Positions 1,044 through 15,690 of a DNA stretch of 39,704 nt are shown in pieces. Within the stretch, counting starts at the first letter, position 1; each line of letters opens with the position of its first letter. Source of the stretch: Escherichia phage vB_EcoP_PR_Kaz2018. Location: sequence record MN510331.1, one strand, 5' to 3'. Both the position numbers and the translations under genes were made by a program. Below the pieces are notes generated by a model, which had not been told where the DNA came from, searched no databases, and saw only the letters and a list, made by a program, of their open reading frames with translations.

Positions 1044-1084
1044 CAGGTCGTTAGACTTATAGCGGCCTGACTGATAGTCACTAA
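1044..1084 (+). promoter_or_regulatory. Early intergenic element, copy 2; putative RNase III site
   Basis: 7-bp stem CAGGUCG/CGGCCUG (1044..1050 with 1063..1069) followed by TGACTGATAGTCACTAA at 1068..1084. Confidence 0.45.
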
Positions 1085-1113
1085 CACATACTTAACTTTG
1101 AGAGGATATAACT

Positions 1114-1623
1114 ATGGAACGTAACGCTAACGCATACTATGAGCTGCTGGCTGCAACCGTTGAGCTGTTCAATGAGCGTATTCAGTACGACGAAATAGCT
1201 GAAGGCGATGACTACTATGATGCGCTGCATGAGGTCGTAGACGGTCAGGTTCCGCACTATTACCACGATATTTTTACGGTGATGGCTGCTGATGGTATAG
1301 ACCACGAGTTCGAAGACTCTGGGCTGATGCCTGAAACCAAGGACGTAACGCGTATACTACAAGCTCGCATCTATGAGGCACTGTATAACGATGTGTCTAA
1401 TAGCTCTGAGGTGGTCTGGTTTGAGGCTGAAGAGGAAGACGAAAAGGCTGAATATTGGGTAGTTGACACTAGAACAGGCGAGATAATTGAGGCAGCTGTA
1501 TCACTTTACGAGGCTATTGCATGTGCAAAAGAACTCTATGAGGAAGGTTTTCACATGCAGGTCGAAGACATCAACGATAACGTAGTGTTCGATCCTGCGG
1601 CTGCTGAGGAGGACTGCGAGTGA
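1114..1623 (+). CDS. 0.3: Ocr-like anti-restriction DNA-mimic protein with a ~55-aa C-terminal extension
   Basis: Residues ~20-105 align with remembered T7 Ocr ([43 protein letters not shown]); strongly acidic; RBS GAGAGGA upstream. Confidence 0.9.
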
Positions 1624-12920: not shown

Positions 12921-14936
12921 ATGTTTGACCTTAAGAGTATCTGGGGTTCTGACATCGAGACCAACGGTCTCCTTGATACAGTCTCCCAGTTTCACTGTGG
13001 GGTCCTGATTAACGCCGAGTCGAATGAGACCCTTAAGTATGGGGTAGCTCCGATGGTCGGTATCGTCGGCGGCTTCAAAGAGTATGTTCATAAAGTGGAA
13101 GAGATTGCCGCATCACCTGATGGTATGCTGGTATTCCATAACGGTATCAACTATGACGTCCCGTCTATAGACAAGCTGAAGCGTTTGTACTTTGGGAAAC
13201 GCTTTAACTTCCCGAAACATAAGATGATTGATACCTTGGTGCTGGGACGCTTGATGTATCCAAACATTAAGTTCTCAGACATGGGCGCGGTGAAAGCTGG
13301 TCGTCTGCCACCTAAGATGATGGGACGCCAGTCTCTTGAGGCTTGGGGCTATCGTCTCGGTGAGATGAAAGGTGAGTACAAACACGATTACGTTGCCAAG
13401 TGCAAGGCTGAAGGTATCGAATATAAGGCTGGGGACGAATGGTTGTTCCCGTCTCAGGAGATGCTGGACTATAACGTTCAAGACGTTGTGGTCACACTGG
13501 CGTTGTTCAAGAAGTTCCTGACTGACAAGTATTACTTCCAGTCTGAACAGTTCGCTTTCGACCAGATTTATGCGTTGCGTCTGGAACATGATGCTGCGTG
13601 GACCTGTGCGAAGATGGAGCGTAACGGCTATCCGATGAACACCGAGATGGTCGAAGGCTTATATCGTGAACTCACTGTCAAACGTGCAGAGTTGCTGGAC
13701 AAGCTGCGTTCGACTTTCGGTAGCTGGTACGCACCAAAGGGAGGCAAGGAGTTCTTCAGGCATCCACGGACAGGTAAGGACCTTCCGAAGTATCCGAGGG
13801 TCGTGTATCCTAAGGTCGGTGGCATCTTTAAGAAGCCGAAGAACAAAGCTCAACGCTTATGTCTTGAACCTTGTGAACGCGATACGCGAGACACGATGGA
13901 AGGAGCACCATTCACGCCAATCACTTACGTTGAGTTTAATCCGGGAAGCGGAGACCACTTAGCGAAAGTCCTGATGGAGCGTGGCTGGGAGCCTGTTGAC
14001 TTCACTGACACCGGGAAACCTGTAGTCGATGACGAGACGTTGGAACACGTTAAGTTACCAGACGCAGAGGCTCAGGCTTGCGTAGAGCTGGTCCGTGAGT
14101 ATCTGGTAGTCCAGAAGCGCATCGGACAGGCTGCTGAAGGTAAGAACGCATGGTTGAAACTTGTAGGTCCAGACGGACGTATGCACGGTTCAATCAACCC
14201 TTGTGGAGCAGTAACCGGACGTGCGACCCATAGTTCACCAAACATGGCTCAGGTCCCGGCTAACGGTGCTCCGTATGGTGAGACTTGCCGTGGTGCTTTC
14301 GGTGCAGCGTGGAACAAGAAGGATGGCAAGCCAGACCCTTGGATTCAAGTAGGTGTGGATGCTTCAGGTCTTGAGCTTCGTTGTCTGGGGAACCGTGCGT
14401 CTCCGTTCGATGGTGGCGAATACGCGAAGACTGTGGTCGAAGGTGACATCCACTGGGCCAATGCGGTCAACGCAGGGTTAGCACCTAACGTCCCACGCGA
14501 TAAGTCTAACCACGACCATGAGGCTTTCCGCAACAACGCCAAGACGTTCATCTATGCGTTCCTGTATGGTGCAGGGGCCGCTAAGATTGGACTGATAGTT
14601 GGCGGTGGTAAGAAGGAAGGTTCAGCTCTCATGAAGAAATTCATTGAGGGTACACCAGCCATCAAGGACCTCAGGGAAGCTGTGAGTAATACGTTAATAT
14701 CAGACTCTAAGTGGGTGGACGGAGAGAACATCGTCAAGTGGAAACGCCGTTGGCTGCGTGGACTTGATGGTCGTCGTATCCACATCCGGTCCCCGCACTC
14801 AGCACTTAACGCCCTACTTCAGGGTGACGGTGCGGTGGTCTGTAAGCACTGGATAGTCGAGACCGAGCGTATGCTTGAAGAAGCTGGCTATGTCCACGGC
14901 TGGGAAGGTGACTTTGCGTACATGGCTTGGGTTCAT
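12921..14936 (+). CDS. 5: DNA polymerase, exon 1 (672 codons)
   Basis: Colinear with T7 gp5 from the 3'-5' exonuclease domain to ...GDFAYMAWVH; the ORF then hits TAA where T7 continues DEIQ... Confidence 0.95.
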
Positions 14937-15534
14937 TAACATCATGGTGCACATTAAATCTGGTGAACTCGGTGAACTCCTAATGGGACAATACCGAGCC
15001 AAGCCATAGGGAGGATGTATGAGAGGCAAGAAGTTAATTCTTGAGGCCACTGAGACTGGCTGCATAATCCCTACGTCACATAAATTGAATCAGGATGGAT
15101 ACTTCCGAAAGAGGACTAACGGTGTCCTTGAGATGTATCATAGAACTGTATGGATTAAAGCTAATGGTCCAATACCTGAAGGTTTCGAAGTAGACCACAA
15201 GTGTCGTAATAGAGCTTGTTGCAACGTCGAACATCTACAAGTATTAGACCGTGACTCACACTTAGTCAAGACCAACCAAGAGCGATACGCTGCTAGGAAG
15301 CTAGAAGCACGAGACTACTGGGTAGAGACTGGGTGTACAGGAACGAAGTTAGCCGAAGTATTCAATGTGTCGTTCTCAGCCGCCTGTGGGTGGATTAGAG
15401 AGTGGAAGGCGTAGAGACTATCCGAAAGGAGTAGGGCCGTGGGTGAGATTCCCACGTAACCCGAAGCGCCAGACAGTCACCTCAAAGACTGATGATATAG
15501 TCCGACACTTCCAGTAATGGGAGAATACAGAAAG
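14937..15534 (+). mobile_element. Group I intron in the DNA polymerase gene, containing an HNH endonuclease ORF
   Basis: 5' exon ends in U (14936) and intron ends in G (15534); candidate guide sequence GUGAAC (14963..14968 or 14972..14977) pairs with exon GUUCAU with a U-G wobble; flanking exons rejoin in frame. Confidence 0.8.
15019..15414 (+). CDS. HNH homing endonuclease encoded within the intron
   Basis: Motif EVDHKCRNRACCNVEHLQVLDRDSH is a His-Asn-His metal-finger signature; RBS GGGAGG upstream. Confidence 0.85.
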   Translation: MRGKKLILEATETGCIIPTSHKLNQDGYFRKRTNGVLEMYHRTVWIKANGPIPEGFEVDHKCRNRACCNVEHLQVLDRDSHLVKTNQERYAARKLEARDYWVETGCTGTKLAEVFNVSFSAACGWIREWKA

Positions 15535-15690
15535 GATGAGCTGCAAATTGCGTGTCGTACTCAGGAGATTGCCGAAGAAGTCGTCAAGATTGCTCAACTT
15601 GCTATGCGTAAGGTGGGCGAGTTCTATAACTTTAAATGCGTCCTTGACACCGAAGGGAAGATTGGACCAACGTGGAAGGAGTGCCACTAA
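15535..15690 (+). CDS. 5: DNA polymerase, exon 2 (51 codons plus stop)
   Basis: Hand-translated DELQIACRTQEIAEEVVKIAQLAMRKVGEFYNFKCVLDTEGKIGPTWKECH matches the remembered T7 gp5 C-terminus. Confidence 0.85.
   Translation, partial: DELQIACRTQEIAEEVVKIAQLAMRKVGEFYNFKCVLDTEGKIGPTWKECH

Follow-up and report, generated by a model that had tools for sequence, protein, structure and literature searches.

The family A DNA polymerase gene in the window (the whole stretch of 39,704 nt that was analysed) stops in the middle of a conserved motif, and its C-terminal part is encoded 598 nt further downstream. The question raised by this locus is whether the intervening segment is an intron or a free-standing gene that truly divides the polymerase. 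The preliminary description had claimed a group I intron with an HNH ORF, and this claim was borne out by exact boundaries, a predicted spliced product that is colinear from end to end, and co-varying core helices. We consider it highly probable that a mobile group I intron of subgroup IA2, with an HNH gene, occupies 14937..15534 and separates the His codon of motif C from the Asp codon; its splicing and its homing are what we infer from sequence comparison. The parts of the gene were delimited as follows.

12921..14936, plus strand: DNA polymerase exon 1 (672 codons ending ...AYMAWVH; from the ORF list; Pfam DNA_pol_A 2.6e-27; boundary from the intron-less phages ST31 and Vec13)
14937..15534, plus strand: highly probable group I intron, subgroup IA2 (598 nt; begins UAAC, which is an in-frame stop; last base omega-G 15534)
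15535..15690, plus strand: DNA polymerase exon 2 (51 codons and the stop, DELQ...KECH)

The ORF at 12921..14939 encodes 672 aa; as had been described, it ends in ...AYMAWVH followed by TAA (14937-14939), and the missing C-terminus, DELQIACRT...KECH, is encoded by 15535..15690. When the locus was aligned with the intron-less Kayfunavirus phages ST31 and Vec13, the surplus DNA was exactly 14937..15534 (598 nt), flanked by ...GGGTTCAT on the 5' side and by GATGAG... on the 3' side. The expected splice-site bases, a T at 14936 ending exon 1 and a G at 15534 ending the insert, were both in place. Exon 2 is in another genomic frame than exon 1, and because 598 is not divisible by 3, the frame is restored only if the excision is exact. 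Exact removal gave a polymerase of 723 aa, equal in length to the products of the intron-less genes and colinear with T7 gp5, and its C-terminal 130 aa, when aligned with T7 DNA polymerase (1skr/2ajq, E = 2.6e-59), ran through the junction without a gap. In the same alignment the exon junction corresponded to His653|Asp654 of T7 (VH|DE) in motif C. We take Asp654 to be one of the two catalytic aspartates of T7 DNA polymerase, located in motif C and presumably equivalent to D882 of Klenow among the family A polymerases. Since exon 2 holds the catalytic Asp654, the polymerase gene of this K1F-type genome has to be read as two exons. The synonymous sites beside the insertion read CAT|GAT GAG in intron-bearing and CAC GAC GAA in intron-less genes, a difference that would fit either co-conversion or a protected target site.

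The folding of the insert was investigated in an alignment of 18 distinct ribozymes, in which the ORF was replaced by NNNN. They came from K1F-type and 13a-type phages, Salmonella CHRF_10037, Arash, Aeromonas PT2, Edwardsiella DT115P1, Klebsiella RCIP0053, Vibrio Vp_R1 and uncultured viral contigs, and the structure scored comprised P1, P3, P4, P5, P6, P6a, P7, P7.1, P7.2, P8 and P9, with P7 crossing P3. The proposed helices of the window, whose coordinates were all confirmed on its sequence, are listed below; percentages are paired cells in the alignment.

14931..14938, plus strand: P1 5' strand (exon GUUCAU followed by UA, with which the intron begins; U14936 contributes the U of the U.G wobble at the splice site, and U14933 is mismatched with C14950)
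14945..14952, plus strand: P1 3' strand, the internal guide sequence (UG GUGCAC; in related introns it changes together with the exon)
14942..14945, plus strand: P10, intron strand UCAU (partner AUGA of exon 2, 15536..15539; 93%, nearly invariant)
14959..14965, plus strand: P3 5' strand UCUGGUG (partner 15467..15473; 98.4%, both-side changes in 5 of 7 pairs)
14968..14998, plus strand: P4 (14968-73 / 14993-98; 96.3%, 3 pairs with both-side changes) around P5 (14978-80 / 14986-88; 100%, 2 such pairs)
14999..15007, plus strand: P6 5' strand CC (partner 15408-09; 100%), AAG, and P6a 5' strand CCAU (partner 15402-05; 96%), with compensatory changes
15416..15420, plus strand: P7 5' strand GACUA (partner 15498..15502; 100%, 2 pairs compensated, as in GGUCA/UGAUC of Arash; crosses P3 to form a pseudoknot)
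15421..15462, plus strand: P7.1 hairpin (15421-30), GUA linker (15431-33) and P7.2 hairpin (15434-62), the IA2 signature
15467..15473, plus strand: P3 3' strand CGCCAGA
15474..15491, plus strand: P8 hairpin (CAGUC ... GACUG; 96.5%, both-side changes in 4 of 5 pairs)
15492..15507, plus strand: J8/7 AUGAUA, P7 3' strand UAGUC and J7/9 CGACA (the most conserved stretch of the core; agrees with the Rfam consensus GAUAUAGUC)
15508..15523, plus strand: P9 hairpin (CUUCC AGUAAU GGGAG; 97.8%, both-side changes in 4 of 5 pairs)

Standard pairs occupied 97.0% of the 1,004 cells of the 18 ribozymes, and 37 of the 57 pairs had changed on both sides. The covariation reached 0.430, compared with 0.144 in shuffles, none of which (0/500) attained the observed value; when the partners were slid, it was at most 0.063 and only 36-48% of the cells were paired. 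Pairing was at least 95% in all helices except the short outer part of P7.2. P7.1 and the inner part of P7.2 were 100% paired, with both-side changes in 3 and 5 pairs, respectively. The group I core from P3 to P9 and the P3/P7 pseudoknot have thus been kept by compensatory changes across the 18 ribozymes. The U.G wobble at the 5' splice site (18/18) and the terminal intron G were invariant. P10 obtained no statistical backing from the 18 ribozymes and is proposed tentatively, because it is nearly invariant; in the 13a-type intron it extends to 7 bp.

The covariance model RF00028 (Intron_gpI) matched 14880..15524 over its full length with 32.1 bits (E = 3e-6), below the curated 50, and at this gathering threshold Rfam gave no match in the window. 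ORF-bearing relatives scored similarly (30-39 bits), while the 271-nt ORF-less relative of Salmonella phage Arash scored 58.9 bits, above the RF00028 cut-off of 50. We attribute the sub-threshold score, putatively, to the ORF insertion of about 400 nt together with the P7.1/P7.2 insertion. As to the subgroup, PMC3428280 assigns introns to IA2 by P7.1 and P7.2 joined by G-U-A between P7 and P3', and exactly P7.1-GUA-P7.2 was found at this position. P2 is absent from the intron of the window, whereas a P2 hairpin is inserted at the corresponding place in four relatives (Edwardsiella, Klebsiella, Arash and the contig L038). Two other kinds of insert were ruled out: an intein, given the in-frame stop at the start of the insert and a length not divisible by 3, and a group II intron, for which neither an Rfam match nor a reverse-transcriptase ORF was found.

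The co-varying core also bears on how the locus has been annotated. Some records present it as a split gene (gp5/gp5.3/gp5.4 in AM084414, two 'DNA polymerase' CDS in Ro45lw), and an in-frame ATG does exist at 15517; accordingly, a free-standing HNH gene might truly divide the polymerase, with the 672-aa part and a 57-aa 'gp5.4' (ATG 15517) associating without splicing. We consider this very improbable. The flanks of the ORF are themselves the co-varying group I core, the ATG at 15517 lies in the P9 loop with no Shine-Dalgarno before it, and such a split would part His653 from the catalytic Asp654, whereas base-exact removal of the insert gives an uninterrupted gene. Relatives of the intron in PhiI and W31 were, in addition, reported as self-splicing group I introns, according to the title of Bonocora & Shub (2004) as cited in PMC3428280. 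In public records, the ORFs 15365..15517 ('unknown') and 15517..15690 ('gp5.4 / DNA polymerase') overlap the 3' domain of the ribozyme, the second of them beginning in the P9 loop, and both look like by-products of an unrecognised intron.

Within the group I reading, the guide sequence is the point at which the preliminary description held only in part. It had proposed that GUGAAC, present twice, pairs with the exon end GUUCAU. The two copies do exist, at 14963..14968 and 14972..14977, and both can pair with GUUCAU, but neither belongs to the conserved P1: the first runs from the final three bases of P3 through J3/4 into the opening base of P4, and the second takes in the end of P4 and J4/5. 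To judge from the aligned sequences, the guide is GUGCAC at 14947..14952, extended by UG (14945-46), which pairs with the first two intron bases. The exon end is GUGCAU, a perfect partner of GUGCAC, in all 7 of the 7 aligned sequenced carriers and in most other carriers, and guide and exon co-vary (AUGCAU/GUGCAU in Vp_R1, GUCCAU/GUGGAC in the contig L112); P1 is 95% paired across the 18-sequence set. That one of the GUGAAC repeats forms P1 instead is extremely improbable. In the window it could make a perfect 6-bp duplex with the U.G wobble (-4.4 kcal/mol), a duplex that is possible there only because of the T at 14933. However, its bases belong to P3/J3/4 and P4/J4/5, both strongly supported by covariation and by the Rfam alignment, and its use as a guide would destroy P3 (-9.2 kcal/mol) or P4 (-7.8 kcal/mol); the exon end GUGCAU of the natural carriers examined, moreover, is unpairable with GUGAAC (-0.4 kcal/mol).

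With GUGCAC as the guide, the window has P1, the U.G wobble and the last-base G of a group I intron, with one internal break in P1, the U x C mismatch 14933:14950. The pair at this position is G-C in 14 and C-G in 2 of the 18 sequences, and it is unpaired in the window alone. The T at 14933 (synonymous, Val) is the allele of the intron-less Vec13; the intron-bearing phages examined have a G. For the isolated P1 hairpin, the predicted energy was -0.9 kcal/mol in the window compared with -7.6 in K1F, and the mismatch may lower the splicing efficiency of the window sequence.

The comparison with K1F (DQ111067) shows how the intron relates to its surroundings. In that genome the polymerase CDS is annotated as a join of two pieces and a 'homing endonuclease' at 15019..15414, with the same coordinates as in the window, and the intron has been called a 'putative group I intron' (PMC4925675). 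The two sequences are 100% identical over 14934..15540, which includes the whole intron with its ORF. The intron of the window is the already-known K1F polymerase intron, of the PhiI/W31 kind, and is not new; what the present work yields is base-level coordinates for each helix and a corrected guide sequence, and it opens no new question. The flanking exons, on the other hand, differ from K1F (exon 1 by about 11-12% over its last 340 nt, with G->T at 14933 among the changes), and 14934..15540, that is, the intron with 3 and 6 exon bases, is the longest stretch free of differences. Over their full lengths the window and K1F, both 39,704 nt with equal feature coordinates, are separated by 1,875 substitutions and 0 indels (95.3% identity), and nothing in the phage collection matches the window better than K1F (94.4% over 12 kb, one ungapped piece). 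The differences are patchy, and none of the records in that collection exceeded about 96%. For natural genomes it would be unusual to have no indel at 4.7% substitutions, even between the genes. In the 3' region of the polymerase, 56 of the 73 differences from K1F are Vec13 alleles.

These features leave room for two further readings of the group I intron. It may be one by descent whose P1 is so broken by T14933 that it splices poorly or not at all, in a crippled or artificial variant. Its being the only one of the 18 sequences unpaired at this position, the drop in the predicted P1 energy, the Vec13 allele at 14933 and a divergence from K1F by substitution only, unusual for natural divergence, all speak for such a variant, which we regard as possible, if rather unlikely. 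What is left of P1 in the window, however, comprises 5 of the 6 exon pairs, including the U.G wobble, and the two intronic pairs, and the ribozyme is otherwise 100% identical to that of K1F. Alternatively, the window could be a real, so far unsequenced relative of K1F, in which an intron of the K1F type had recently entered a Vec13-like polymerase allele by homing and co-converted no more than 3 exon bases upstream of itself and 6 downstream. We think this improbable; if it were true, the recipient's T14933 would have been kept, P1 would be mismatched for that reason, and the newly arrived intron would not yet be fitted to its exons.

The other component of the proposed mobile intron is the gene that it carries, for which two features were located.

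15010..15014, plus strand: Shine-Dalgarno GGAGG of the intron ORF (4 nt upstream of the ATG; read from the sequence; conserved in homologues)
15019..15414, plus strand: predicted gene of an HNH homing endonuclease (131 aa), within the loop of P6a (Pfam HNH_3; the closing codons, E-W-K-A-stop, share bases with P6a', P6' and J6/7)

The HNH ORF previously claimed at 15019..15414 was recognised by Pfam HNH_3 (PF13392) with E = 7.1e-16 and 58 bits, compared with a cut-off of 24.8. It lies between the P6a strands 15004-07 and 15402-05, and its tail is strongly conserved, probably because of the overlap with P6a', P6' and J6/7. At least 168 homologues of the protein were found. H60, N69 (near-invariant), H72, H81 and N86 are conserved in 44 homologues, and the protein is 77% identical to that of the intron ORF in phage 13a. 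The predicted structure was confident (pLDDT 89), and its top Foldseek match was 1u3e, which is I-HmuI, a nicking enzyme encoded by an intron; the match is a weak one (probability 0.99, E = 0.025, TM 0.41 over 85 columns). A sequence search of the PDB with the HNH protein returned nothing meaningful and no detectable similarity to I-HmuI. The product is probably an HNH endonuclease, with the activity and target that its analogues would predict.

Based on these elements, we infer splicing, endonuclease expression, activity, target and homing in the following order. In the pre-mRNA, P1 would arise when the guide GUGCAC (14947-52) pairs with the 3' end of exon 1, where the U.G wobble marks the splice site, and the core would fold as P3-P8 with the P3/P7 pseudoknot, leaving P7.1 and P7.2 peripheral. 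An external guanosine would then attack the 5' splice site, exon 2 would be aligned through P10 (UCAU:AUGA), and the freed 3'-OH of exon 1 would attack after omega-G 15534, giving joined exons as the mRNA for the 723-aa polymerase. The endonuclease would be made from the gene in the P6a loop by way of its own ribosome-binding site. By analogy with enzymes of the I-HmuI type, its probable action in a mixed infection is to nick or cut polymerase alleles that lack the intron, close to where the intron inserts, and repair would copy the intron into the cut allele, which would amount to homing.

Coliphages are known to contain other IA2 ribozymes in which a peripheral helix accommodates an endonuclease ORF as a loop, namely the td, nrdB and nrdD introns of T4; these occupy other host genes, and the ORFs of td and nrdB are of the GIY-YIG type, not HNH. 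A precedent put forward in the preliminary description is that of the polymerase introns of PhiI and W31. The summary in PMC3428280 agrees with it: these introns are described there as group I, subgroup IA2, with an HNH ORF in P6a and insertion site 881. As far as this summary goes, the intron of the window resembles that of PhiI/W31 (HNH ORF I-TslI) in the gene that it occupies, in its position there (His|Asp within motif C, numbered 'site 881' after E. coli Pol I), in its IA2 structure with P7.1/P7.2, and in an HNH ORF placed in P6a with its own ribosome-binding site. The T7-group phage 13a, the gp5 of which is annotated as a join in GenBank, was used only as a stand-in for PhiI and W31, to which its kinship is assumed. 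Its intron is 601 nt and differs in a longer P1 loop and P10, and in compensated differences in P1, P5, P7.2 and P9. Group I introns with an HNH gene in a family A polymerase also occur in the Bacillus phages SPO1, SP82 and Bastille and in cyanophage Pf-WMP3 (I-HmuI, I-HmuII, I-BasI, I-PfoP3I), but at another insertion site, given in the summary of PMC3428280 as 674 versus 881.

The distribution of the intron family among phages was also investigated. The 3' domain of the ribozyme was matched by 59 of 50,697 phage records (44 of them over at least 80% of the domain), and the polymerase region by 309; so patchy a distribution is as would be expected of a mobile element. The family is now found in dozens of sequenced phages of several genera and is less rare than it was in 2004. 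At the His|Asp site of the polymerase, introns of this family were also seen in Vibrio (Vp_R1, L016 825..1437), Edwardsiella, Klebsiella and Aeromonas phages (L012, L013 and L011). Vp_R1 belongs to the Grimontviridae, outside the Autographiviridae, which suggests that the intron has spread across phage families. The 271-nt ORF-less intron of Arash (L014, about 1061..1331) has a closely related core and lies at another site of a family A polymerase, ...AKSVTF|GLLYGA in motif B; it carries the P2 hairpin, and its P6a contains only a tiny ORF. In uncultured viral contigs (L110 7341..9008; also L111, L128 and L134), two group I-like introns, each with an ORF, are located about 1 kb apart in the polymerase gene, and the upstream one had a weak Rfam match (25.7 bits, E = 8e-4). 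Finally, the J8/7-P7' core motif GATGATATRRTCCGAMMC occurred in at least 120 viral contigs, in many of them outside polymerase genes, which suggests that related group I introns form a large family in phages.
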